DNA of 44,632 nucleotides, from UHGV virus genome UHGV-0179607; one strand, 5' to 3'. Under the pieces are notes generated by a model. It saw only the letters and a list, made by a program, of their open reading frames with translations, was not told the origin of the DNA and made no database searches. How positions within the stretch are numbered: position 1 is the stretch's first letter; each line of letters starts with the position of its first letter. The stretch comes from a virus. Shown here piece after piece: positions 1-44,632 of the stretch. The translations under genes were made by a program, and so were the position numbers.

Positions 1-70
1 CGGGACAGGCGGGACAAAGCCCAGTCTTTCAGACTAGACGGGGGTCAATGGCCCCCCTCGTCTGAGACTG
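1..70. repeat. iterons plus conserved-stem hairpin upstream of the tape measure gene; copy 2 of the duplicated element
   Basis: Positions 1-18 carry two GCGGGACA units; 21-70 is an imperfect inverted repeat with the same arms as 28591-28640 but a different loop (TCAATGG vs TCTGGCA). Confidence 0.65.
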
Positions 71-138
71 AATAAGGTTTGTTTTAAATTCGCTGATACA
101 ATGACCGACGGCAACTGCATAAAAAGGGGGACTGCATA

Positions 139-9000: not shown

Positions 9001-9024
9001 TGGGGCCAGATGGCCCCATTTTCA
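9001..9024 (+). terminator. rho-independent terminator after the J-like gene
   Basis: Perfect 8-bp stem TGGGGCCA / TGGCCCCA followed by TTTTC; also lies at the 3' end of the convergent minus-strand gene. Confidence 0.6.
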
Positions 9025-10290: not shown

Positions 10291-12702
10291 ATGGCAGCGG
10301 GTACGCTATCCGTAACGAACAATAGCAAGGCGGTAGTAGGGGTCGGCACCACGTTTACCGCGTTTAAAGCTGGCGACTTCTTAACGTTGGTGGTAGGGCA
10401 AGTCCCATACACCGTGGCAATCGCGTCCATTGAAAGCGCAACCGCGCTTACGCTGGTGCTGCCGTTCGACGGCCCAACGGCAACCGGCCTTGCGTGGGAC
10501 GGCGTTAAGCGCGATACCATGTCACTGGCAACGATGGGCGTTACCGTACAGGCACAGAAAGCGTTGCGATTGATGATCGCAGATGAAAACAACTGGCGCG
10601 CTATCTTCGGCGAAGAAGAAGAAATCTCGGTCACGCTACCGAACGGTCAAGTGGTGCAGGGTATGTCGTGGGGCTACCTGTCAAAACTGCTTAAAGACGT
10701 AGATCCTGTTGAATTGCAGGCTATCGCGGACCAGACCATCACGGCTAAAAACCAGGCGCAAGGATTCCGTAACGAGGCGGAAGGCTTCAAGAACACCGCG
10801 AATACCGCGAAAGATGCCGCAGTAGCTGCGAAGACAGCGGCGGAGACAGCTAAGTCGCAGGCCGTAACCGCTAAAACGGCAGCCGAGTCCGCAAAGACTG
10901 CCGCGGAGACAGCTAAGTCGCAGGCCGTAACCGCTAAAGACCAGGCCAAAGGATTTCGCGACGAGGCTGAAGGCTTCGCCAACAGCGCGGACGCGTCAAA
11001 GAAAGTGCCGTATGCTGGCGTAACACTACCGGCACCGACTGGAGTAAGGGATATGCTCAAGCGGTTGCGCGATTCGGTTAAGGGCGGCTTCTGGCGCGTC
11101 GATGATATTGCGCAGTTTCCATCTGGCGAGATGACCCCTTTCAGATACGGACCTGGCGTATGTGGCGGCGCGGGGGATACATTCTTTGCAATCAACGTTG
11201 ACTGGCAAACCTCGCGCGTTAAAGTTTTCTCGGGAAACAACAACGCGATCAACGGTGCGTCGGGAAGTGTTAGCGCTATCGAACTGGCTAAGCTGGGGGC
11301 TAACGGGGACGTGGAGATCGGGGACGGCGGGACCGGTGCATCGAACGACCAGGGCGCGAGAAAAAACCTTCAGGCAATGCACGAGCGACAGGCATCGTTG
11401 AATACTGAAGATCTTAACGTCCTTCAGGGTGATAAGGCTGGGTTTTATTATCAGTCCATGTCGGCTAACGCCACCCCAGAGCGTAACTATCCTACTAACA
11501 TGGCGGGTTGTTTACTGGTGCAAAGATCCGGTGCTAACGACCCGAAGAGTTGCATACAGACGTACGCTACCTACGGCGACGGTCGGCGATGGATTCGATG
11601 GTTAGGCAACGCGGCTACGGGTACCTGGTCGCAGTGGTACGAGATGTTTAATGCTGGGTCATCTCCAGAATTTAACGCATACGTAAGAGCTAAAAGCGGC
11701 GATCGAATCGTCGAAATGTTTGTAGGCGGCATTGATGTTGGCGTTCGCAACCGCACGTCGCAGAAAGTGCTACAGCTTCGTGACAACGGCGAACTGGCGT
11801 ATGACAACAAGCTGATCGCATATAACGGACTTGAAGCCAGCGGCACATTTGCTATGCGAATTCCTAGTATGAAGGTAATAACAGCAAATGGTGGCTTCCG
11901 GATCGACGGAACAGTGTCAACAAACAACCAACCACTGCACGTAACAGGGTACAACTCAGCAGGCACGCGTCTTTGGTTTTTAGGGAAGGACACCGGGACG
12001 AGCGCGCTATTCCTGAACGATATAACGTCTTCTAAAGTTGAACTGATCACGGACGGCGTTGTGCTTGGTACGAAGGATTTCGCGGGAAAAGCATACGTTC
12101 AGGCCGCAAGTTTAGAGATCGACCGCCCGAGTGGCAAGTATTTCAAAATGCTGAACGACGGCAACTCGTCACACCCCGCAACCTTCAAATTATGGGGTAA
12201 CGGGTCTGATAGGGCGTCGGTTATTGAGTGGGGTTTTGATAACGGCCCTGGGTGGGTGTTTTACGCGCAATATAATAGCAACGGCACGCGCCAGATGAAC
12301 GTTAACGGAACGGTAAACTGTACGACGGTAAACCAGTCGTCTGACCGCGAGTTGAAGGATAACATCAAGCCGATCGAGAACGCCCGCGCGGGCCTTGCTA
12401 AGATGGGTGGCTATACCTACACCCTGAAGAAAGACGGTATGCCGTACGCCGGGGTGATTGCACAGGAAGTAATGGACGTTGTGCCAGAAGCGGTGAGCAC
12501 GTTTGAGGACTACGAATACCTTGCGGGTCCAACGCAAGACGGCGAGGAACTGGTAGGGCGTCAGCGCTTCTTCCAGGTGGACTACGGCGCTATTGCTGCA
12601 TACGCGGTGCAAGTGTGTAAAGAGCAGGAAGAGGAACTGGTGTCTTTGCGTAGCGAACTGGAGGAATTGAAAGCTGCCGTAGCGGCACTGACTAAAGCAT
12701 AA
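10291..12702 (+). CDS. tail fibre protein with C-terminal intramolecular chaperone (peptidase S74-like) domain
   Basis: 803 aa; C-terminal region SDRELKDNIKPIENARAGLAKMGGYTYTLKKDG...AGVIAQEVMDVVPEAV matches the self-cleaving chaperone domain of endosialidase and T5 L-shaped tail fibre type proteins; internal tandem repeats; strong RBS. Confidence 0.8.
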   Translation: MAAGTLSVTNNSKAVVGVGTTFTAFKAGDFLTLVVGQVPYTVAIASIESATALTLVLPFDGPTATGLAWDGVKRDTMSLATMGVTVQAQKALRLMIADENNWRAIFGEEEEISVTLPNGQVVQGMSWGYLSKLLKDVDPVELQAIADQTITAKNQAQGFRNEAEGFKNTANTAKDAAVAAKTAAETAKSQAVTAKTAAESAKTAAETAKSQAVTAKDQAKGFRDEAEGFANSADASKKVPYAGVTLPAPTGVRDMLKRLRDSVKGGFWRVDDIAQFPSGEMTPFRYGPGVCGGAGDTFFAINVDWQTSRVKVFSGNNNAINGASGSVSAIELAKLGANGDVEIGDGGTGASNDQGARKNLQAMHERQASLNTEDLNVLQGDKAGFYYQSMSANATPERNYPTNMAGCLLVQRSGANDPKSCIQTYATYGDGRRWIRWLGNAATGTWSQWYEMFNAGSSPEFNAYVRAKSGDRIVEMFVGGIDVGVRNRTSQKVLQLRDNGELAYDNKLIAYNGLEASGTFAMRIPSMKVITANGGFRIDGTVSTNNQPLHVTGYNSAGTRLWFLGKDTGTSALFLNDITSSKVELITDGVVLGTKDFAGKAYVQAASLEIDRPSGKYFKMLNDGNSSHPATFKLWGNGSDRASVIEWGFDNGPGWVFYAQYNSNGTRQMNVNGTVNCTTVNQSSDRELKDNIKPIENARAGLAKMGGYTYTLKKDGMPYAGVIAQEVMDVVPEAVSTFEDYEYLAGPTQDGEELVGRQRFFQVDYGAIAAYAVQVCKEQEEELVSLRSELEELKAAVAALTKA
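10840..10938 (+). repeat. 36-bp perfect tandem-type repeat inside the tail fibre gene
   Basis: GCGGAGACAGCTAAGTCGCAGGCCGTAACCGCTAAA occurs at 10840-10875 and 10903-10938, encoding repeated AETAKSQAVTAK units. Confidence 0.7.
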
Positions 12703-12706
12703 CGGA

Positions 12707-12730
12707 AAGGGGCCATACGGCCCCTTTTTC
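12707..12730 (+). terminator. bidirectional rho-independent terminator between convergent operons
   Basis: Stem AGGGGCC / GGCCCCT with loop ATAC followed by TTTTT; sits between the tail fibre stop and the stop of the last minus-strand early gene. Confidence 0.6.
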
Positions 12731-18522: not shown

Positions 18523-18565
18523 CGTCATGTCTCCCAAAAATGGCGGGACAAGCCCGCCGTATTAA

Positions 18566-21767: not shown

Positions 21768-22547
21768 TTAACGGCGGCGACGTTTGCGTGGCGCTTCGTC
21801 TTCGTCGTCGTCCTCATCTTCGTCATCGCGTGGCTTACGACGTTTGCGAGGTTTTTCATCTTCCTCATCGTCGTCGTCATCGCGGCGCTTGGACTTTTTG
21901 GACTTACGCGGCTTATCATCTTCATCGTCATCACGACGTTTTGACTTCTTAGCCTTGCGCGGTGCTTCGTCTTCGTCGTCGTTGTCCAGGTCTTCATCGG
22001 AGCAAGAAGACCCGCCACCGCCGAAGGCTTCACCGTCATCCCGGAAGCGTAAACCCAGCAAGCCAGCGCCGAGTCCCTTGCCGTTGGTGTTGTTCCACGC
22101 CCAAATATCCAGGGACACGTTGCAATAGCAACCGGAATAGATTTCCTGGCCTTCGATCTCGTCGCCTTCTACGGTAAGACCTTGTTCAGTCTGCTTCTCG
22201 CCGAGTGACGTTTGGATGTTTGGCTGTTTGAACGATTTGGCGTTGATGTACAACATGCCTTCGAACTCTTCGGTTACTTCATCGCGCTCGTCGCCGTCGC
22301 GAACTGCGCATTCCTTAGAATCCTGGGCGTAGTGGCGGTCCATCCACTTATCGGCATTCTTCTCGGATTTCAGCTTGTCGGTGAGCACTGCTCGCGCTGC
22401 CGCTTCCACTTTGTCCACCTGCGGATCTTCTTTATCAAGAAGAATCACGGCGCGGTATGCCGGTTTTTGTCCATCCTGTTTAGGGGTATCACGTTCCCAA
22501 ATTTTCAGGAAACATACGCGCACATTTTTCAGGTTGACTTTAGCCAT
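21768..22547 (-). CDS. single-stranded DNA-binding protein-like (T7 gp2.5-type) with long charged repeat tail
   Basis: N-terminus MAKVNLKNVRVCFLKIWE and FGGGG followed by an acidic stretch resemble gp2.5-like phage SSBs; C-terminal ~90 aa are tandem acidic/basic repeats (DDEDE.PRK.KKSKRRDDD); GAGGA SD at ATG 22547. Confidence 0.45.
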   Translation of the reverse strand: MAKVNLKNVRVCFLKIWERDTPKQDGQKPAYRAVILLDKEDPQVDKVEAAARAVLTDKLKSEKNADKWMDRHYAQDSKECAVRDGDERDEVTEEFEGMLYINAKSFKQPNIQTSLGEKQTEQGLTVEGDEIEGQEIYSGCYCNVSLDIWAWNNTNGKGLGAGLLGLRFRDDGEAFGGGGSSCSDEDLDNDDEDEAPRKAKKSKRRDDDEDDKPRKSKKSKRRDDDDDEEDEKPRKRRKPRDDEDEDDDEDEAPRKRRRR

Positions 22548-24791: not shown

Positions 24792-25310
24792 TTAATCTTC
24801 CAGTTCGAAATAAGTTTCGACGATTTCTTTAAGATCTTTGTGGAAGTCTTCGACGTCGTCATCTTCCAGCTTGGCGATTGATTTGATCTCGAACGATTCC
24901 AGCAGGTCGTCGAATTCGTCGTTGGCATCGTCGTCGTCACCACCAGCGATAATAGCGGCATACTGTTTGATCTCGTCGCGCATCTCTGCCAGCGGATCGG
25001 CATCTTTCTTGCCTTTGCCTTTCGCCGGTGCTTTTTTACCCTTCGCCGGTTTTTCGTCTTCGGCTTCTTCATCGTCGTCATCTTCTACGACTTCTTTTTT
25101 GGCCTTACCTTTAGCCGGTGCTTTTTTGGTTTTCGCCGGTTTTTCGTCTTCGGTTTCATCGTCGTCATCTTCTACGACTTCTTTTTTGGCCTTAGACGGC
25201 TTCTTGTCTCCCGGCTTACCAACGGCAGCGCCAACGGTTTCATAATGCTTAGCGATGGTTTCCAGTGCTACTACGCCGCGAGTAATCAGGTTTACGATTT
25301 GTTCAAACAT
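24792..25310 (-). CDS. acidic repeat protein, first gene of the leftward early operon
   Basis: 172 aa; two tandem ~20-aa repeats KKEVVEDDDDE..EDEKPAK.KKAPAKGK and a strongly acidic C-terminus; encoded by ~60-bp DNA tandem repeats at about 25030-25200; GGAG SD. Confidence 0.5.
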   Translation of the reverse strand: MFEQIVNLITRGVVALETIAKHYETVGAAVGKPGDKKPSKAKKEVVEDDDDETEDEKPAKTKKAPAKGKAKKEVVEDDDDEEAEDEKPAKGKKAPAKGKGKKDADPLAEMRDEIKQYAAIIAGGDDDDANDEFDDLLESFEIKSIAKLEDDDVEDFHKDLKEIVETYFELED

Positions 25311-25717: not shown

Positions 25718-26047
25718 ATGAATGTAAACGACGCAATCGAAATGTTAACGAAGACTGTTAGCAGTGAAACAAGCCGGTCATGGGCTTATACCGATGCCGT
25801 TGGGGCGGTGCTGTTTGAGGTCGAGCGCCTGCGCAGTGTAGAAAAAGAATTACGCGCCAGGCTGGAATTGCTCAACGGTACGGCGGCGAGCAAGCTGCAA
25901 AAACACAATGAGGAAATGGAAGAATACAAAAAGCAGGTTATCCGTTTGCGCGCCGAGGGAAAGTCATGGGCGATGATCGCGGAGTTGACAGGGATTAACC
26001 AGAGCACCGTGCGCTCCTGGGTACGCAATAACAAAACTTCGAAGTAA
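25718..26047 (+). CDS. helix-turn-helix DNA-binding protein
   Basis: 109 aa; C-terminal KSWAMIAELTGINQSTVRSWV is a typical HTH; first gene of the rightward operon. Confidence 0.5.
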   Translation: MNVNDAIEMLTKTVSSETSRSWAYTDAVGAVLFEVERLRSVEKELRARLELLNGTAASKLQKHNEEMEEYKKQVIRLRAEGKSWAMIAELTGINQSTVRSWVRNNKTSK

Positions 26048-26057
26048 GGCCACGGCA

Positions 26058-28322
26058 ATGAGCTTAATTAAATTCGCTGTTACAAGACCCGCTAAAAAAG
26101 GCGAAAAAGCCAGGGCGGAAAACTTCCAGATGACCACCGATGAATTTTTCGAATTTATCAAAGATGCGAAAGAAATCTCCTCGGTGCATATCAACAAGAC
26201 GGAAGATAAAGCCGAGTATGCGCGCCGCAAGCGTAAGGCCGACGGCATCGTGGCGTATACCAGTGACGGATTGCGTCGTAAGACCAGTGCGGTGGACCGC
26301 TCGATCCTGTTCTTCGATATTGACCGTACCGACACCCGCACCCTACGCCGCTGCCGTAAGGCGTTCATTGACGCGGGGCTGGAACACGTATTTCACACCA
26401 CAACCGGCGACCGTCACCCACTGAAAGGCGGCACGCGTTGCGCTCGATTCCTGGTGCTCACTGACAAGCCTGTACCGGCTGAAGACCTGGGCCGCGTCCA
26501 GTATGCACTATTACACCAACTGGGTCTGTCAGATGTGGACTTCGACGATTGCACGAAAGACACAAACCGCCTGATGTACCTGCCACACCAGCAGTCTGTT
26601 ATTAAGTGCCACTACGGCAAGCGCGCCCGCGTCCGTCGTCTGCTTCGCCTGGCGGATAAGTTGGGCGCGGAAAAAGAGGAAGTACGCCGCGAGCTTACCC
26701 AGGGCGACGACGCAGTGGCAGACGGCATTCTGGACTGGTGCTTCCAGGCAGGATTCGAGGAGTTATCTTCCGGGCGGGGCTATGAAGTGCCGTGCCCTAA
26801 CGAACATCTACACAGCGGCGAAGGGTCCACCGCTATTATGGTTAAGGACGGCGAGATCCGTTTCAAGTGCATGCACACAGGCAACGAGTGTTGCTCGGAA
26901 CTGAATAGACACCAGCACCTGGCGCTGCGTCTTATCGGGATCCCGGACCACCTGAACGTCGAGCCACACAATATGTCCCGTAAGCAAATCGCCGCCATCC
27001 TTCCGGGGCTGGACGACGAGGAAGTCGAATCCTTATATGAACATATTGTTGATGCGGTTGGCGACGGCGAAGAATACGGCGTGTGCACCGATGCGGATCT
27101 GGATAACGAGCCGGTTGCGCTGTTCAGTAAGCACGACCCGATTATCGAGGGGTTGATTAACTTTAAATCGACCTGGTACATGGCGGGTGAGTCGAATATA
27201 GGTAAGTCTTTCTACGTGCTGGGCCAGATGGGCGCGGTTGCTGCCGGTATTCCGTTTGGCGGTGCGAAGGTCGTCCAGTCTCATTGCTTCTATTTCGACG
27301 CGGAAGGTGGCGAAGCCTCTAACCAGCGTAAAGAAGCATTGCAGATTAAATATGAGCACGACCTGGACAAGCTGCACATTATCGATCTGCAGTCACGCGG
27401 CTGGGATATCACCAGCAAATCGGGCTTGCGCGAAGTTATCAGCTTTATCAACCGCACCGCTAACGGCGAACCGGTTGGCCTGGTGGCGTTCGACTCACTC
27501 AACCAGACTGTTGCGTTGCGGTCCGCTGATGCTAAACCGTTCGACGAGAACAACGCCAGCGATATGGGTGAAGTGGTCAAAGCGCTGAAGGCCATCGCGG
27601 AAAATACAGGTGGTAGTGCGGGCGTCATCCACCACCCGGCTAAAGGTGCAAACGGCAGCAGAACGCCACGCGGGTCCGGCGCGCTGCATGGTGCTGTCGA
27701 TTCTGCGTTCTTCCTGGAACAGCCGGACGACAACCAGCCCGGACAATTGAACCTGTATCACGAAAAGTCACGTAACGGCATCAAGCAAGCGCCGCGCGGC
27801 TTCGTCCTGCTCAAGTGCAAGGTGAAGGTGGATCTCCGCAAGTCAGAAGCGTTCGAGGCGCACCAGTCCACCAGCACCGGGCCAGACTTCGGCGACGTGG
27901 TTGCCGGATGGGACGTCAAGCCGATTGCCTCCACGCCACGCGACGAGACTCTCTACCTCGTACCGGTTGCCCTGGCACCTTTCGCTATTGAACAGGCGAA
28001 GGCGGCGGGCAAGGCCGCGGTTAAGGAAGAGAACACCGCCGGACCGCGCAACGAAAAAGAGAAAGTGCTTTATGCGGCACTGGAAAAACTGATGGAAGAT
28101 AACCCGGACCATACTGGATTCAGTAAATCGGCAATCGTCCGCCAGGCGGGACTCGCAAAAGGGGGCACTTCGACGAAGGCAATCGACGATATGGTGGAGC
28201 GCGGGGTAATAGGTTTTTATACAGATCCGCACACCGGGGCCATCTATGGGTCTTCTAATTTGGTCATCAAATCGGATATCCCTATCACGCTTTCCGCGAC
28301 CGATGACGATTTAAAAGATTAA
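26058..28322 (+). CDS. primase-polymerase (AEP-like) / P-loop replicative helicase fusion protein
   Basis: N-terminal ILFFDIDRTD resembles the AEP/prim-pol DxD motif; central Cys/His cluster (CPNEHLHSG...CMHTGNECC); P-loop MAGESNIGKSF of RecA/DnaB-like (AAA_25-type) helicases; 754 aa. Confidence 0.55.
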   Translation: MSLIKFAVTRPAKKGEKARAENFQMTTDEFFEFIKDAKEISSVHINKTEDKAEYARRKRKADGIVAYTSDGLRRKTSAVDRSILFFDIDRTDTRTLRRCRKAFIDAGLEHVFHTTTGDRHPLKGGTRCARFLVLTDKPVPAEDLGRVQYALLHQLGLSDVDFDDCTKDTNRLMYLPHQQSVIKCHYGKRARVRRLLRLADKLGAEKEEVRRELTQGDDAVADGILDWCFQAGFEELSSGRGYEVPCPNEHLHSGEGSTAIMVKDGEIRFKCMHTGNECCSELNRHQHLALRLIGIPDHLNVEPHNMSRKQIAAILPGLDDEEVESLYEHIVDAVGDGEEYGVCTDADLDNEPVALFSKHDPIIEGLINFKSTWYMAGESNIGKSFYVLGQMGAVAAGIPFGGAKVVQSHCFYFDAEGGEASNQRKEALQIKYEHDLDKLHIIDLQSRGWDITSKSGLREVISFINRTANGEPVGLVAFDSLNQTVALRSADAKPFDENNASDMGEVVKALKAIAENTGGSAGVIHHPAKGANGSRTPRGSGALHGAVDSAFFLEQPDDNQPGQLNLYHEKSRNGIKQAPRGFVLLKCKVKVDLRKSEAFEAHQSTSTGPDFGDVVAGWDVKPIASTPRDETLYLVPVALAPFAIEQAKAAGKAAVKEENTAGPRNEKEKVLYAALEKLMEDNPDHTGFSKSAIVRQAGLAKGGTSTKAIDDMVERGVIGFYTDPHTGAIYGSSNLVIKSDIPITLSATDDDLKD

Positions 28323-28397
28323 ATTCTGCGCGCATTGGTTGCCGATATGGGAATTCCCATATCGGTAGATGATTAAATTCTGCGCGCATTGGTTGCC
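28317..28397. repeat. 27-bp perfect direct repeat flanking a 24-bp perfect palindrome
   Basis: GATTAAATTCTGCGCGCATTGGTTGCC at 28317-28343 and 28371-28397; between them CCGATATGGGAATTCCCATATCGG (28342-28365); copy 1 contains the primase stop codon. Confidence 0.7.
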
Positions 28398-28482
28398 ATT
28401 TTGCGTGCTTTTAGTCGGTCGTATTGGTTGCCGTGTAGTGTAAATATAGTGAATAGTTATGCAATAAAACTGCATAAAGTAA

Positions 28483-28639
28483 GCGGGACAAAAAGCGGGA
28501 CAGACCAGGGGCGGGACAAAGCGGGACAGCACCCCTGTCCCGCCCCGGATGACGCGGCCTGGCGAGGAGCGGGACAGCGGGACAGCACCCCAGTCTTTCA
28601 GACTAGACGGGGGGTCTGGCACCCCCCTCGTCTGAGACT
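28483..28639. repeat. iteron array (GCGGGACA x6-7, one inverted) plus ~48-bp conserved-stem hairpin; copy 1 of a duplicated element
   Basis: GCGGGACA at 28483, 28495, 28511, 28521, 28569, 28578 and inverted at 28536; large imperfect inverted repeat 28591-28640; same architecture at the window ends. Confidence 0.7.
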
Positions 28640-28799
28640 GCATAAAATCCAGGATTGCATAATACACGGCAACAAGATGCGAATTGCGGTCGTCGATGAA
28701 CTAGGCAACCAATGCGAGTTGCAGAATGGTGGGTGAAAAATGCAGTTTGCAGTTGCAGCAGATAGCGATCAACTTTTTCATACGCGTGATTAATATTGG

Positions 28800-28828
28800 T
28801 TGCACCCACTCCAGCACCCTGCTATATT
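28800..28828 (+). promoter_or_regulatory. sigma70-like promoter with conserved leader
   Basis: TTGCAC - 17 bp - TATATT followed by GGTTGCACACCAACA; the 22-mer 28822-28843 recurs inverted at 38936-38957. Confidence 0.4.
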
Positions 28829-28858
28829 GGTTGCACACCAACATGAGGACTGAACAAA

Positions 28859-29335
28859 ATGAAATTTCCAGTAATCATCAAAGACGGTAAATCAACTATC
28901 ACTTTCACCGGCAACGACCACGGCACTTACGAGAGCGGCGCGGCTTGCATGTCCACCCTGGAAGATATGATGATTCGTGTTAATTCCGGTAAAGCCTCAA
29001 TTATTACCCCCCTCGCGGAGAGTACCAAAATGAAAGCATTAATCTGGAATTACACAATGGCGGTGGCGAAGCTGTATGAAGCGAAGCACACAGACGGCAA
29101 CGCAGACGACGCGCGCCAGGTTGTCATCCTGGCCCAGCAGGGAATCAGGCACGCGTTCGACGATATGTTTGCCAGCCTGGACGAACTGGAACCGCTGCGC
29201 GTGGCAATCTGCGAATATGCGATGGCTTTTGCCCGCGAGCGCCTGGCGTATCGCTTCGGGATCGGCGAGACGGCAGTGACAAACGTCGCCCGGATTAAAG
29301 CCCAGCGCGAGCTATTCGACCAGCTTGCGAAATAA
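28859..29335 (+). CDS. hypothetical protein
   Basis: 158 aa; GAGGA SD; no motif recognised. Confidence 0.45.
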   Translation: MKFPVIIKDGKSTITFTGNDHGTYESGAACMSTLEDMMIRVNSGKASIITPLAESTKMKALIWNYTMAVAKLYEAKHTDGNADDARQVVILAQQGIRHAFDDMFASLDELEPLRVAICEYAMAFARERLAYRFGIGETAVTNVARIKAQRELFDQLAK

Positions 29336-32676: not shown

Positions 32677-32771
32677 CCGCACAGCCTGCCGATTTGGTGG
32701 GCTTTTTTGTGCCTGTTATAATCCCCCTTAGATGGCAGGGCCGTCTCCTATGTTGCCGATGGTCGGCGCAT

Positions 32772-33344
32772 ATGAACAAAAGGGCTTATATCATGGCAGA
32801 AATCAAAGTTAAGGGCCGACGCGCCAAACTGGACGGTAGAGTGGCAGTTACCCCGCGCCGTAAACCAGGCGAGCAAACAGAACATACCAATCTCGGACCT
32901 GAAATCGAGTACGGAAAGCGCCGCAAAGGCGGTAAATGTGGACGCCCTACGGACTACCGATCCGTTTACTGCGACCAGCTTCGCCGCTATTTTGCCGACG
33001 CAGACGCCTGGCAGGTCAACTACTCCGATAAAGGCGCTGCGCAAGTAATCCCTCGCAACAAAATGCCAACCTTCGGTCGATTTGCCGCGGAAATCGGTGT
33101 GGGCGTAGCTTGCCTGTATCGCTGGGCGCGCGCACATGAGGAGTTTGCCGAGGCGATGGCGGACGCAATGGAGTTGCAGAAAACTTTCCTGATGGAAGCT
33201 GGTGGCGTGACCATCGCGGCGGGCTTCGCGACCTTCCTGCTTAAAGCAAACCACGGCGTCCGCGACGATGTGCCGCTGGATGACGACGAAGATGATAACG
33301 GCGACGTCGTTGTCGAACCTACCGGCAAAGGCCAGGGCGAATAA
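32772..33344 (+). CDS. terminase small subunit
   Basis: Directly upstream of and overlapping the large terminase gene (TAATG); basic N-terminus, putative HTH PTFGRFAAEIGVGVACLYRWARAHEEF, acidic C-terminus; start could also be ATG 32793. Confidence 0.6.
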   Translation: MNKRAYIMAEIKVKGRRAKLDGRVAVTPRRKPGEQTEHTNLGPEIEYGKRRKGGKCGRPTDYRSVYCDQLRRYFADADAWQVNYSDKGAAQVIPRNKMPTFGRFAAEIGVGVACLYRWARAHEEFAEAMADAMELQKTFLMEAGGVTIAAGFATFLLKANHGVRDDVPLDDDEDDNGDVVVEPTGKGQGE

Positions 33345-37670: not shown

Positions 37671-37782
37671 CCCGTCCGCAGACCCCGACGAGGATTTGAT
37701 GATTGACGTGAAAAATATGGAATGCGGGGCGAAGCTAAGGGCGCAGGTGCTGGAGTTGCAGCAAATAATTAAGGGGCCGTAA
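37552..37782 (+). CDS. o-spanin (Rz1-like outer-membrane lipoprotein)
   Basis: ATG 37552 with AAGAGG SD; signal peptide MLRALTALIVVLMLSAC with lipobox LSAC; Pro-rich mature part; overlaps the 3' part of the i-spanin gene in another frame. Confidence 0.55.
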   Translation: MLRALTALIVVLMLSACGSSNAPLMPLTESALRPPCKFDSPSADPDEDLMIDVKNMECGAKLRAQVLELQQIIKGP

Positions 37783-37794
37783 TAGCCCCTTTTT
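37772..37794 (+). terminator. rho-independent terminator between convergent genes
   Basis: Stem AGGGGC / GCCCCT, loop CGTAATA, followed by TTTT; includes the o-spanin stop codon. Confidence 0.55.
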
Positions 37795-37796
37795 CA

Positions 37797-38561
37797 TTAG
37801 CGCGGAATGCCGCAAATCTCGTTGAGTGTTTTCACGTCCAGCGCCACCGCCGTGGATTTTGGCTTGTCCGGGTATGGGATGAATTGCTCAACTTCAGGCC
37901 ATGCCTTAATCAGCTTCTTGTCAGTATTGTGCAGGTCCAGCACACCGGTAACGGTGAGTTTGAACGCGTCATACTTAGCACGCAACTCACGGCGGGCCTT
38001 ATCGTTACGGTCCAGGCGCTTGCAGAAGTCATGGTCCGCAGGGTAGACTATGCGACCGCGTGGCTTATATATCGGCAGCGCTTTCCCGTCCTCGTCCACT
38101 TCGCACACTGAAGCTAACATAATTTCCTCATACCCCGGTACGATATCGCCGAGATCGGGAGATAGCGTATTCATGTATTTATATTCCCAGTATCCTCGAT
38201 GTACTCGGTATTGGTATCCGTCGCCGCTCAATGACAAGGTGCGAACATTTCCGCCCGCGTTGATTTCGAAAGTGGCGTCGTAAACGCTGCCGATACCTTT
38301 CGGGCGGTCGGTGTTATAACTATACGTCGCCTTGTTGGTGTATACACAGACGCCGTACATCTGCGACGGGTCATCGCCGATTGCTTCAATTCGCGCGAGT
38401 AGCTCGGCGAACGTGCGAATGCCTTCCGGCATACAGTCAAGCGTAATGGCATAAGCCAGGTCGCGCGAGTCCATCATGATTTGTTTGGCTTCGGTTGCGA
38501 TTTCGTGGTCGCGCAGGATGTTAGCCAGAATCTGATTTTTAATGTCTTTAGTCAGTCTCAT
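37797..38561 (-). CDS. hypothetical protein (reverse-oriented cassette gene 2)
   Basis: 254 aa; GAGGA SD preceded by a GGGGC-GAAA-GCCCC hairpin; opposite orientation to the flanking morphogenesis genes; no motif recognised. Confidence 0.5.
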   Translation of the reverse strand: MRLTKDIKNQILANILRDHEIATEAKQIMMDSRDLAYAITLDCMPEGIRTFAELLARIEAIGDDPSQMYGVCVYTNKATYSYNTDRPKGIGSVYDATFEINAGGNVRTLSLSGDGYQYRVHRGYWEYKYMNTLSPDLGDIVPGYEEIMLASVCEVDEDGKALPIYKPRGRIVYPADHDFCKRLDRNDKARRELRAKYDAFKLTVTGVLDLHNTDKKLIKAWPEVEQFIPYPDKPKSTAVALDVKTLNEICGIPR

Positions 38562-38915: not shown

Positions 38916-38950
38916 TTTGTTTTCCTTCATATCTCTGTTGGTGTGCAACC

Positions 38951-38980
38951 AATATAGTGCAACCAACATACGCAATGCAA
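38951..38980 (-). promoter_or_regulatory. sigma70-like promoter for the reverse cassette
   Basis: Minus strand TTGCAT - 18 bp - TATATT followed by GGTTGCACACCAACA, identical over 22 bp to the promoter at 28822-28843. Confidence 0.4.
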
Positions 38981-39871: not shown

Positions 39872-40972
39872 ATGTCTTTAACAGTGTTCCAGCGTAAACT
39901 CGTTACCGCGGTTACGCAAATGATCCCCGATAACCTGAACGTGTTCAACGCCGCCGCTAACGGCGCTGTTGTTCTCGGTACGGGTGAAGTGCTGAAGGAC
40001 GTTGTAGAAAAAATGTCCGTAGGCTTGATCGCCAACCTCGTTACCGACCGTAACGCCTATGCCCCTGTCGGTACTCCGGCGACCGCAAAAGTGCTGGCGC
40101 GTATGCTGACCAACTCCGTTAACCTGTCTGCGAAAGTGGGTCCGGTGGCGATCACTAAGGCTATGATGGCTAAAATCGAAACCAACGTTAACAGCGTTGC
40201 GGCTGAGATTGCGGCACAGGCTACTCAAGCGATTATGCTGCATTACCTGAAGGCTGGCATCGGCGCAAGTAAAGCGGCGATCGAAAGCAACGCAGCGGCA
40301 AAATACACCCAACCGGCGCGCGTTGACGGCGTTGGCGGTCGTACCTTCCCGACCCTGGCAGACTTCCCGCTGGCGGCTTCTAAGTTCGGCGATCAGGCGT
40401 CTTTGATTAAGTCCTGGTTTATGGACGGCGTTACCTGGGCAAACTTCATTGCGTACCAGGCACTCCCTTCCGCTGAACAGGTATTCGCAATTGGCGATCT
40501 CCAGGTAATGGGTGATGGCCTGGGCCGTCGCTTCATTATCTCCGATGCCGCTGCCGATGCTATGGGCACGGGTAACATGCTGGGTCTGGTCCCTGGCGCG
40601 GTTGCAGTTACCACCAACGGTCTTGATATGCTGGCGCAGGAGAAAGGCGGTAACGAGAACATCGAACGTTGGTGGCAGGGCGAGTTCGACTTCAACGTGG
40701 CGGTTAAAGGCTATCGTCTGAAGGCGTCCGCACGTACTCCGGTCGAAGGTGTTCGCTCGTTCAAACTGTCCGACATCACCACTTCCGCTAACTGGGAACT
40801 GGACCAGGGCCAGGTAGACAACGCCCCTGCAACCGTGCAGGACGTTGGCGCTGTTGGTGATGGCGATACTAAAGGCCGTCGTAAGACCCAGGCCGCGCAG
40901 GAAGTGCCGACCCGTCACATCAAGGAAACGGCAGGCGTACTGGTTACGCTTACCCCGACCAAAGCGTCCTGA
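39872..40972 (+). CDS. major capsid protein
   Basis: 366 aa after the scaffold gene; strong RBS (AAAGGA); followed by a strong terminator; the equal-length antisense ORF is treated as a shadow. Confidence 0.7.
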   Translation: MSLTVFQRKLVTAVTQMIPDNLNVFNAAANGAVVLGTGEVLKDVVEKMSVGLIANLVTDRNAYAPVGTPATAKVLARMLTNSVNLSAKVGPVAITKAMMAKIETNVNSVAAEIAAQATQAIMLHYLKAGIGASKAAIESNAAAKYTQPARVDGVGGRTFPTLADFPLAASKFGDQASLIKSWFMDGVTWANFIAYQALPSAEQVFAIGDLQVMGDGLGRRFIISDAAADAMGTGNMLGLVPGAVAVTTNGLDMLAQEKGGNENIERWWQGEFDFNVAVKGYRLKASARTPVEGVRSFKLSDITTSANWELDQGQVDNAPATVQDVGAVGDGDTKGRRKTQAAQEVPTRHIKETAGVLVTLTPTKAS

Positions 40973-43823: not shown

Positions 43824-43846
43824 GGGGCCAGTACGGCCCCTTTTTT
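43824..43846 (+). terminator. rho-independent terminator/attenuator after the major tail gene
   Basis: Stem GGGGCC / GGCCCC, loop AGTAC, followed by TTTTTT. Confidence 0.6.
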
Positions 43847-43862
43847 ATTGGAGAATACTACA

Positions 43863-44225
43863 ATGGCAAAAGCACCACTCTTCACACTTGACCCTAAGCC
43901 GACCTTTAAGCTGCCGATTGAGATCCCGCGCCCCGGTGAAAACGAACCGGGGAAAATGACGTTTACCGTGCGCCACCGCCCGATCGACGAATTTTCGCAG
44001 ACCATGCAGGATACTGAGCGCAAGTTGTCGGAGTATGACGACAATGACCCTGACGGCTTTAACGTTATGGTCGAGGCCATAATGCACGTCGCTGAAGGCT
44101 GGAATCTGCCGGACGAATTTAACGCGGAGAACGTCCGCCGCCTGGTGGTCAACTACCCGCGCGCGTTCGGCGTGTTCCACACGTCGTACTATCTCGAACT
44201 GATGGGGCTGCGTGAAAAAAACTAA
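43863..44225 (+). CDS. tail assembly chaperone (lambda gpG-like)
   Basis: 120 aa from ATG 43863 with GGAG SD; acidic; ends just after a slippery A7 run. Confidence 0.6.
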   Translation: MAKAPLFTLDPKPTFKLPIEIPRPGENEPGKMTFTVRHRPIDEFSQTMQDTERKLSEYDDNDPDGFNVMVEAIMHVAEGWNLPDEFNAENVRRLVVNYPRAFGVFHTSYYLELMGLREKN

Positions 44226-44539: not shown

Positions 44540-44542
44540 TGG

Positions 44543-44632
44543 AGCGGGACAGGCGGGGCGTCCCGTTTTGTCCCGCACCTCTAAAACTGCATATTTACTC
44601 ACCACAATTGCATAAATTAAAAGCGGGACAGG
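44543..44632. repeat. iteron-containing region at the window end, continuing at 1-70 with the conserved hairpin
   Basis: GCGGGACAG at 44543-44551 and 44623-44631, inverted copy at 44569-44576; the window then starts with CGGGACAG GCGGGACA followed by a copy of the 28591-28640 hairpin. Confidence 0.65.

Follow-up and report, generated by a model that had tools for sequence, protein, structure and literature searches.

An iteron-and-hairpin module found twice in a Dhillonvirus genome and linked to its primase-helicase gene: a possible replication origin

Results

Genes around two similar repeat regions

A repeat element that occurs twice in the virus genome UHGV-0179607 was analysed, the whole deposited stretch of 44,632 nt being referred to below as the window. 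By its sequence, the window is the genome, complete or nearly so, of a Dhillonvirus, an SO-1/HK578-like virulent siphovirus of E. coli. The gene order was as in SO-1, with the tail genes on the plus strand from position 139, a leftward early block at 12.7-25.5 kb and a rightward block with, in this order, a gene for a helix-turn-helix (HTH) protein (25718-26047), the primase-helicase gene, small genes and the lysis, terminase (terS at 32694-33344), head and tail genes. One copy of the element, region B, fills the entire 535-nt gap between the stop codon of the primase-helicase gene and the next gene, whereas the other, region A, lies across the joined ends of the window, between the stop codon (44540) of gpT, the frameshifted T tail chaperone that follows the G chaperone (43848-44225), and the ATG of the tape measure gene (139). 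This is the gene context that an earlier note on this DNA had given for the two copies, with the primase-helicase next to the first and the G/T chaperones and the tape measure gene flanking the second.

The duplicated repeats are not new as an observation, as they were already annotated in the record of Sodalis phage SO-1 (GenBank GQ502199, 2009), in which 'region A' (11214-11597) and 'region B' (40178-40657) are described as 'direct, inverted and palindromic repeat sequences' similar to each other and are credited with a 'possible' role. In addition, the annotations of HK578 and CS16 put 'terminator' features within these regions, and no discussion of regions A and B was detected in the literature found on SO-1, EP23, YD-2008.s, B2 and Ioannina.

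When the region around the element was compared with phage records, 159 of them matched, with identities of 76-98%. No match to the element was detected in 5,426 E. coli genomes nor in PLSDB, and a host or plasmid origin was rejected on this basis. Open reading frames (ORFs) called by some annotators over region B (28389-28736 on the plus strand and 28311-28667 on the minus strand) were also rejected as coding, because conservation tracks the repeat and hairpin units and the copies differ by 1-nt indels.

Iterons and hairpin of region B

The repeat unit GCGGGACA, referred to as the iteron, had 12 exact matches in the window compared to 2.06 ± 1.56 expected, a number that was not reached by any of 100 shuffled sequences. 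Seven of these matches were located in region B within 102 nt, the first one 161 nt past the stop codon of the primase-helicase gene, and the six direct copies and one inverted copy detected at 28483-28584 reproduce the count of the earlier note. Four further copies were found at the window ends, and an isolated copy at 18543 was compatible with chance. The complete anatomy of both regions is shown in Table 1.

The A+T-rich tract that abuts the first iteron is a candidate DNA-unwinding element, a tract of this kind lies directly against iterons in region A as well, and the position of GAATAGTTATGCA 5' of the iterons was kept in relatives down to 43% helicase identity. The inverted iteron forms a first hairpin with its neighbour, and in many relatives it was degenerate or replaced by the palindrome CGGGACGTCCCG. 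The second and longer hairpin reached -15.1 kcal/mol when folded as single-stranded DNA (z = -4.7), with none of 200 shuffled sequences being equally stable. On its 3' side, TTATGCA followed by ACACGGCA(A/G)C was detected in all lineages, regardless of the type of iteron. Regarding the flanking TGCATAA motif that had been described as repeated, seven copies were indeed found on the plus strand and five on the minus strand, but the genome-wide enrichment was marginal (12 vs. 5.7 expected for both strands together), even though seven of the 12 copies fell in the elements.

Table 1. Coordinates of the primase-helicase gene and of the features of regions B and A in the window.
Feature	Position	Strand	Description
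Primase-helicase gene	26058-28322	+	754 aa; candidate trans-acting reader of the iterons
Region B, three direct ATTGGTTGC(C) motifs	28334-28431	+	starts 28334, 28388, 28423; upstream of iterons; same motif in all lineages
Region B, AT-rich tract	28436-28482		77% A+T vs. 45.6% in the genome; contains GAATAGTTATGCA and a TTATGCA/TGCATAA palindrome; abuts first iteron
Region B, four direct GCGGGACA iterons	28483-28529	+	starts 28483, 28495, 28511, 28521
Region B, head-to-head iteron pair (hairpin 1)	28521-28543		GCGGGACAG, loop CACCC, CTGTCCCGC; inverted iteron at 28536
Region B, GC-rich variable spacer	28544-28568		identity 0.70; sequences of A and B differ
Region B, two tandem iterons	28569-28584	+	starts 28569, 28577; 8-nt spacing; just 5' of hairpin 2
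Region B, hairpin 2	28591-28640	+	5' arm 28591-28614, loop 28615-28621, 3' arm 28622-28640; outer stem CAGTCT/AGACTG, middle stem, G-run/C-run inner stem, variable loop TCTGGCA
Region B, conserved flank 3' of hairpin	28638-28673	+	CTGCATAA at 28638, TTGCATAA at 28655, ACACGGCAAC at 28664-28673
Region A, left part	44541-44632	+	iteron 44544, palindrome GGCGGGGCGTCCCG, inverted iteron 44569, iteron 44623; record ends inside array
Region A, AT-rich tract	44577-44622		72% A+T vs. 45.6% in the genome; contains CTGCATA and TTGCATAA
Region A, right part	1-16	+	tandem pair 5' of the hairpin: CGGGACA at 1-7, truncated by the start of the record, and GCGGGACA at 9-16
Region A, hairpin 2	22-70	+	loop TCAATGG; DNA fold -13.4 kcal/mol, z = -4.4
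Region A, flank 3' of hairpin	68-138	+	CTGAATAA, GCTGATACAAT (94-102), GACGGCAAC (107-115), two CTGCATAA (115, 132)

Region A and the break in the record

The two long hairpins had been described as identical in their arms and different in their loops. The loops did differ, but the 5' arms were not fully identical, as they differ by one G (six in region B and five in region A). In the 3' flank of region A, GCTGATACAAT resembles an extended -10 element, and the features of this flank were invariant in 11 of 11 copies of region A.

A 700-nt query made of the joined window ends was compared with the relatives, revealing that each of them matched in two pieces spanning 852-854 nt. In phiEco273, which is 99.6% identical in the flanks, an extra 153 nt was located exactly between window positions 44632 and 1, holding one more TGCATAA tract, four direct iterons, one inverted iteron and a spacer, which together make up a full core of the B type. 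Region A measured ~385 nt in ten other Dhillonviruses, with ~13 iteron copies in three modules. The element claimed to recur across the window ends is thus present there, but it had been read over the break of the record without ~153 nt, in a truncated version. One repeat module is probably missing from the deposited sequence, and the window most likely ends where the assembler could not cross the repeat, although an iteron-mediated deletion in this isolate may be an alternative cause of the missing 153 nt. A metagenomic contig of 27.6 kb, ERR11172925_9173 (L109 at its end and L236 at its start), extended exactly from region A to region B, beginning and ending with the same 27-nt iteron stretch, which lies in A at one end and in B at the other. 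This contig shows that short-read assemblies of these phages do break at this repeat.

In a further relative (L237, positions 53-801), close to the L108 lineage described below, two minus-strand genes with TTGGTTGC motifs upstream were found inserted between gpT and the iterons of region A. Region A seems to tolerate or attract moron-like insertions, like the SPP1 oriR segment.

Conservation within Dhillonviruses

To compare the parts of the element, 24 non-redundant A and B cores from Dhillonviruses were aligned, and their mean pairwise identities were obtained. The hairpin arms were the most conserved part (0.98-0.995), followed by the TGCATAA motifs (0.95) and the iteron cores (0.93). Lower values were obtained for the inter-iteron spacers (0.83, with 0.65-0.83 for spacers overall), the long spacer (0.70), the inverted iteron (0.65) and the hairpin loop (0.59), for which at least seven variants were detected. 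The earlier argument for selection rather than chance holds well with these data, as the clustering of the iterons was far above chance and iterons and arms are conserved while the spacers drift. Thus, the element is a selected, duplicated non-coding module and not a chance pattern.

The same loop and pre-hairpin variants were found in region A of some phages and in region B of others, with the 8- and 9-nt spacing variants before the hairpin each being found in both A and B of different phages, so that A and B must exchange sequence. A comparison of both loci had also been proposed as a way to detect covariation in the stems. Within the genus, the combination of conserved stems and a diverged loop does not stand as covariation, as the stems were simply invariant in the 24 copies; stems that never vary reveal conservation instead. 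Compensatory changes were detected only in more distant lineages.

The same layout with different repeats in other lineages

Loci with relatives of the primase-helicase were collected from IMG/VR, public assemblies and GenBank. All relatives examined, including those with only 43% protein identity, showed the same layout 3' of the stop codon of this gene: one or two copies of GAATAGTTATGCA in an A+T-rich tract, five to eight short repeats including inverted ones, a spacer, two tandem repeats, the hairpin, and then TTATGCA and ACACGGCA(A/G)C (ACACGGCAAC). The hairpin itself had a shared form, consisting of a small stem-loop on the 5' side and an inner stem of a G-run and a C-run.

In contrast to the layout, the repeat differed between lineages. 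The Dhillonvirus repeat GCGGGACA (helicase of reference) was shared with L108 and L112, whose helicase was 68% identical to that of the window, whereas GTGTGGCA was found in L109 and L110 (68-69%), GTGTGCCA in L111 (69%) and GGTGCCA in L113 (67%). At helicase identities of 43-46%, the repeat was TCCGACA in L026, AGGGATA in L028, GGGGATG in L031 and GGGGAGA in St162, and TS33 carried both AGGGAGA and AAGGGAT. In all these cases the density of the repeat at the element was from 20- to >800-fold that of the rest of each locus.

The hairpins of all ten lineages were more stable than shuffled sequences, with z values from -2.3 to -4.7 (-2.3 to -4.4 in the nine other lineages). Regarding their stems, a G:C to T:A double change was detected in L110, and those of L111 were wholly different (GCAG, AGAGAC, GGGAG, loop, CTCCC, GTCTCT, CTGC). 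When seven lineages were analysed with RNAalifold, compensatory changes were detected in six of 17 pairs, in an alignment that was rough.

Both regions could be compared in several of these lineages. In contig ERR11172925_9173, GTGTGGCA iterons and a hairpin were located before the tape measure gene, and GTGTGGCA was also found after the helicase gene. In an eiAU-like phage (helicase 46% and tape measure protein 38% identical), a CGCCCCG module was present in both regions, with the hairpin in A, and in the L108 lineage (L108 and L237) CGGGAC was present in both. The use of one repeat at two sites of the same genome points to a single co-evolving trans-acting reader, and the fact that A and B share the repeat of their own lineage argues against a neutral second copy. 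A scan of viral contigs for pairs of GTGTGGCA gave 120 unrelated hits, none of them with the hairpin or with TTGGTTGC, the pattern being too unspecific. As far as these sequence comparisons go, two aspects are new: a conserved module of iterons plus hairpin that accompanies a PrimPol-helicase-winged-helix gene in two phage groups, and lineage-specific iterons that are kept identical at two distant sites.

The primase-helicase as candidate reader of the iterons

The primase-helicase showed three parts. At the N-terminus, a PrimPol domain of the archaeo-eukaryotic primase (AEP) type was detected together with a Zn-finger, with DxD/H and Cys/His motifs; the model of the PrimPol domain (pLDDT 84) had the PrimPol of cyanophage S-2L as best structural match (E 2e-5). 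The core was a RepA-like RecA-type helicase (AAA_25, residues 357-531), for which the only match of the protein sequence against the PDB was a marginal one to RepA (1g8y, E 0.53). At the C-terminus (~664-739), a three-helix-plus-wing domain was predicted (pLDDT 82-89), and its structural neighbours were all winged helices, including the winged-helix domains of Cdc6/Orc1. The part that contains this winged helix (residues 651-750) was the least conserved of the protein, with 24-29% identity compared to 43-46% overall, and nine of the 14 positions specific to the GCGGGACA lineages fell in residues 560-748, with two, S691 and T704, in the HTH motif.

The HTH protein encoded at 25718-26047 had been proposed as one of the proteins that could bind the iterons. 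It matched HTH_23 and Sigma70_r4_2, and its HTH segment (EGKSWAMIAE-TGIN-STVRSWVRN) was unchanged in lineages with four different iterons. As this segment is invariant while the iterons differ, the HTH protein cannot set iteron specificity, which makes it an unlikely reader of GCGGGACA. The predicted C-terminal winged helix of the primase-helicase is the better candidate, and a plausible one.

More plausibly, the HTH protein reads the lineage-invariant motif ATTGGTTGC. Fourteen copies of this motif were detected in the genome (at 10267, 13932, 15837, 15854, 18796, 25516, 28334, 28388, 28423, 28705, 28795, 28826, 29533 and 38945) compared to 0.6 expected, most of them between long ORFs and most facing the next gene, and relatives with as little as 43% helicase identity keep it as TTGGTTGC or TTGGCTGC. 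Therefore, ATTGGTTGC and the HTH protein may form a phage-specific promoter or operator system. A 22-nt perfect inverted repeat that contains TTGGTTGC, CTATATTGGTTGCACACCAACA, was found at 28822-28843, just upstream of the plus-strand gene at 28859, and at 38936-38957, upstream of the minus-strand gene 37797-38561; this pair looks like a shared promoter or operator cassette.

Other repeats of the window

Tandem repeats of a different kind were detected within ORFs. A 90-nt repeat (24998-25177, 80% identical) lay in the minus-strand ORF 24792-25310, beside the divergent early control region, and encodes lysine/alanine/glycine-rich stretches alternating with acidic ones; GA(C/T)GA-rich repeats resembling it were found at 21784-21999. 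In the plus-strand ORF 10291-12702, which in its position matches SO-1 gp25 (putative tail fiber), 63-nt tandem repeats (10804-10950, 79% identical) encode an alanine-/lysine-rich repeat.

Discussion

A replication origin as the best-fitting role

Three roles had been offered for the element (replication origin, terminase recognition site and RNA processing or termination signal), and the first of them fits best. We infer from the anatomy of the element, its linkage to the helicase gene and the domains of the protein that a self-loading primase-helicase may bind it as an origin of the iteron type, of which the tail operon contains a second copy, an interpretation to which we give about an even chance of being correct. 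Region B (28436-28675) would be the origin of replication, directly after the primase-helicase gene. The C-terminal winged helices of the hexameric PrimPol-helicase would bind the CGGGACA iterons (six direct and one head-to-head), the adjoining 77% A+T tract would melt and the helicase would load itself. The G-run/C-run hairpin would then extrude from the unwound strand, and it could stabilise the open complex and/or give the fused AEP primase a defined place to start on single-stranded DNA. The same protein would also read region A, a second array that would be either a second origin, an enhancer like crr of P4, or a fork barrier made of bound protein, as proposed for oriR of SPP1. In the latter case, it would aid the switch from theta to concatemer synthesis.

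Several data weigh against such an origin. The spacing of the iterons is irregular (8-16 bp). Promoter-like TTGGTTGC motifs surround both elements, which lie at operon boundaries; the coding strand always carries the G-rich arm, and the late transcription unit includes copy A. All this would suit an RNA or transcription role equally well. The overall identity of the winged-helix region showed no relation to the class of iteron, with values for the window protein of 0.56-0.60 to GCGGGACA lineages and of 0.52-0.60 to the others. The covariation between iteron and winged helix rests on few positions and is confounded by phylogeny. In the Guernseyvirinae (St162 and TS33) only the B-type element is present, without region A, and the chaperone and tape measure genes abut. 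Finally, GC and AT skew marked neither element and followed only the direction of transcription. Nevertheless, as the turning points of the skew (12.7 and 25.5 kb) coincide with changes of gene orientation, skew is uninformative on the origin.

More tentatively, and as a generalisation that we consider rather doubtful, the element could be the first defined origin type for the widespread one-protein replicases (AEP PrimPol, RepA-like helicase and winged helix) of enterobacterial siphoviruses. In Dhillonvirus, Guernseyvirinae and eiAU-like phages, the iterons would recruit the protein, and the fused primase would take the conserved three-part hairpin as its signal for initiation on a single strand. 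The role of the copy in the tail operon would be that of a programmed roadblock or enhancer timing the switch to concatemers, or it would couple replication to late expression, and the fast joint turnover of the iterons at both sites would make replicons specific when related phages co-infect. Few coliphages and Salmonella phages are isolated as frequently as Dhillonviruses and Guernseyvirinae, which therapy collections also make use of. An origin defined together with its matching initiator domain would offer an engineering handle, for example through origin-dependent plasmids or replication-specific reporters, account for the tendency of assemblies to break at two fixed places, and provide a natural series of iteron/winged-helix pairs for the study of how initiator specificity evolves.

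Alternative explanations

The main rival to an origin, and a serious one, is a role in transcription or in the RNA. In such a case the repeats would be operator or activator sites of a lineage-specific regulator and the hairpin, in the mRNA, would be an attenuator, a 3'-end stabiliser or a processing site. Both would set expression ratios at two junctions, one after the early replication genes and another between the abundant tail-tube/chaperone products and the low-copy tape measure/tip genes; taken jointly, we regard these two proposals as possible but on the unlikely side. Both copies are intergenic, on the transcribed strand and in the same orientation, with the G-rich arm first in all lineages, and region B folds as RNA at z = -4.6. 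Signals of transcription are also close, as the promoter-associated ATTGGTTGC motif surrounds region B, distant relatives have strong sigma-70-like promoters 3' of region B (TTGACA-17-TATTGT and TTGACT-17-TATTAT), and an invariant extended -10-like TGATACAAT follows region A; the annotators of HK578 and CS16 apparently saw terminators here as well.

In contrast, no U-tract was present 3' of either hairpin, the sequences after the stems being CATAAAATCC and AATAAGGTTT, so that the hairpin is not a canonical intrinsic terminator. A consensus scan of both elements also failed to detect any plus-strand terminator or sigma-70 promoter. When the whole window was searched against Rfam 15, no match was obtained at the gathering score, and a permissive search gave only sub-threshold microRNA-like chance hits in the elements. 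Seven to 13 short direct repeats in an array are a typical mark of DNA-binding sites rather than of RNA elements. Only one regulator-like protein is encoded nearby, and its HTH is invariant and cannot follow the changes of the iteron. In addition, the element stays with the 3' end of the helicase gene across wide divergence. However, both roles are not mutually exclusive, because transcription through an origin can activate it.

Canonical intrinsic terminators of the form GGGGCC-loop-GGCCCC with T-runs were detected at the ends of gene blocks (9002-9022, 12709-12729, 43825-43845 and 37764-37794), in contrast to the U-less hairpins of regions A and B.

A second possibility affects only region A, which could be a neutral duplication or a selfish repeat without a function of its own. 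This would agree with its absence from the Guernseyvirinae relatives and with its variation in length and uptake of genes in one relative (L237). However, region A was present in 159 of the 159 matching phage records, its iterons and hairpin arms are conserved as in B while the spacers have diverged, it keeps the iteron of B in lineages in which the iteron has changed, and no match was found in E. coli genomes and plasmids, so we consider a neutral copy very unlikely.

Repeat arrays occur in some pac sites, such as those of P1 and SPP1, and the window ends fall within region A, as could be expected if the repeats bound the small terminase and one or both elements set the start of headful packaging. 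However, failure of the assembly at the repeat explains the break of the record better, given the 153 nt missing and the contig of a relative bounded likewise. With respect to terS, the elements lie at a distance of 4 kb on the upstream side and of 11 kb on the downstream side, and a genome with two pac sites would be unusual. The association of the element with the helicase gene also holds where the structural layout differs, with G/T adjoining the tape measure gene and without region A. Furthermore, the element bears no relation to the cos sequence claimed for EE09, and headful packaging was predicted for a relative in which no pac site was mapped (PMC9022532). The terminase recognition site of the earlier note is thus left without support, and we hold this role to be improbable in the extreme.

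Finally, a rolling-circle double-strand origin of plasmid or CRESS type, in which a Rep endonuclease would bind the iterons and nick the hairpin loop, is hardly credible. The layout of iterons beside a stem-loop resembles that of such origins, but the loop is here the most variable part (0.59, at least seven variants), leaving no conserved nick site in it, for which a HUH-type nick site was rejected. The adjacent replication protein is a primase-helicase and not a HUH nuclease, no scan of the proteome for HUH proteins having been made.

Comparison with known systems

If the element is indeed an origin read by the primase-helicase, the closest analogues would be the Rep origin of Staphylococcus aureus pathogenicity islands (SaPIs), ori/crr of P4 and oriL/oriR of SPP1, the resemblance of their proteins to the present one being, by analogy, a functional one. 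The Reps of SaPIs bind 6-12 iterons directly downstream of rep through a C-terminal winged helix, and their origins have an AT-rich centre, oppositely oriented iterons and an element-specific iteron sequence (PMC9371898). As in SaPI Rep/PriRep, a self-loading initiator-helicase with a C-terminal winged helix is predicted here, a primase fusion existing in SaPI5, and iterons in both orientations are located downstream of the initiator gene, beside an AT-rich segment. However, SaPI Rep is an MCM-like AAA+ protein, whereas this helicase is of RecA type (AAA_25) with an AEP PrimPol, and comparisons of sequence and fold of the primase-helicase gave no match to SaPI Rep. In addition, the AT-rich tract lies to one side and not at the centre, and a long conserved hairpin forms part of the unit, which is duplicated as a whole elsewhere in the genome.

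The alpha protein of P4 combines in one polypeptide a primase, a helicase and a C-terminal winged helix that binds the repeats of the origin (PMC4234260). The same three parts are present in the protein of the window, with the winged helix as a prediction. However, alpha has a Toprim-type primase and a superfamily 3 (SF3) helicase, compared to AEP PrimPol and AAA_25 here; the two proteins are analogous and not homologous. The iterons of P4 are octamers, and a second cis site with the same iterons, crr, located ~4.5 kb away, is required.

Similar parts are also found in plasmids. In the oriV of IncQ plasmids (RSF1010), iterons occur together with a GC-rich segment, an AT-rich one after it, and hairpin single-strand initiation (ssi) sites primed by the AEP-like RepB', and the IncQ RepA helicase is the archetype of AAA_25. 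However, IncQ replication divides these functions among three proteins, its iterons measure 20 bp and its two ssi hairpins lie on opposite strands, and RepB' was not among the fold matches of the primase-helicase. ORF904 of pRN1 is an AEP PrimPol-helicase with a winged helix, and in cis it requires a long stem-loop located right after the replication gene, an arrangement that resembles the present one and of which the authors of that work remark that similar ones exist in some phages. Unlike the window phage, pRN1 is an archaeal plasmid with an SF3 helicase and without iterons.

Regarding the presence of two sites, the parallel is found in SPP1, a virulent Bacillus siphovirus of ~44 kb in which two alike sites, each with repeats and an AT-rich part, are served by one initiator, one of them at the replication genes and the other interrupting the conserved order of late structural genes; the second site has been proposed to block forks and thereby trigger the theta-to-sigma switch (PMC6316719, PMC3485210). 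Differences are apparent, as SPP1 relies on a separate protein, G38P, to bind its origins, together with a loader of its own and a DnaB-type helicase, the replication module of the window phage being of another type, oriL is inside gene 38, no conserved hairpin has been described, and host and lineage are unrelated to those of the window phage. Nevertheless, the same repeats are present here at two sites as well, with B after the primase-helicase gene and A splitting gpT from the tape measure gene, which are adjacent in St162 and TS33. If the origin interpretation is true, the copy in the tail operon would allow the fork-stalling/concatemer idea of SPP1 to be tested in a Gram-negative system.

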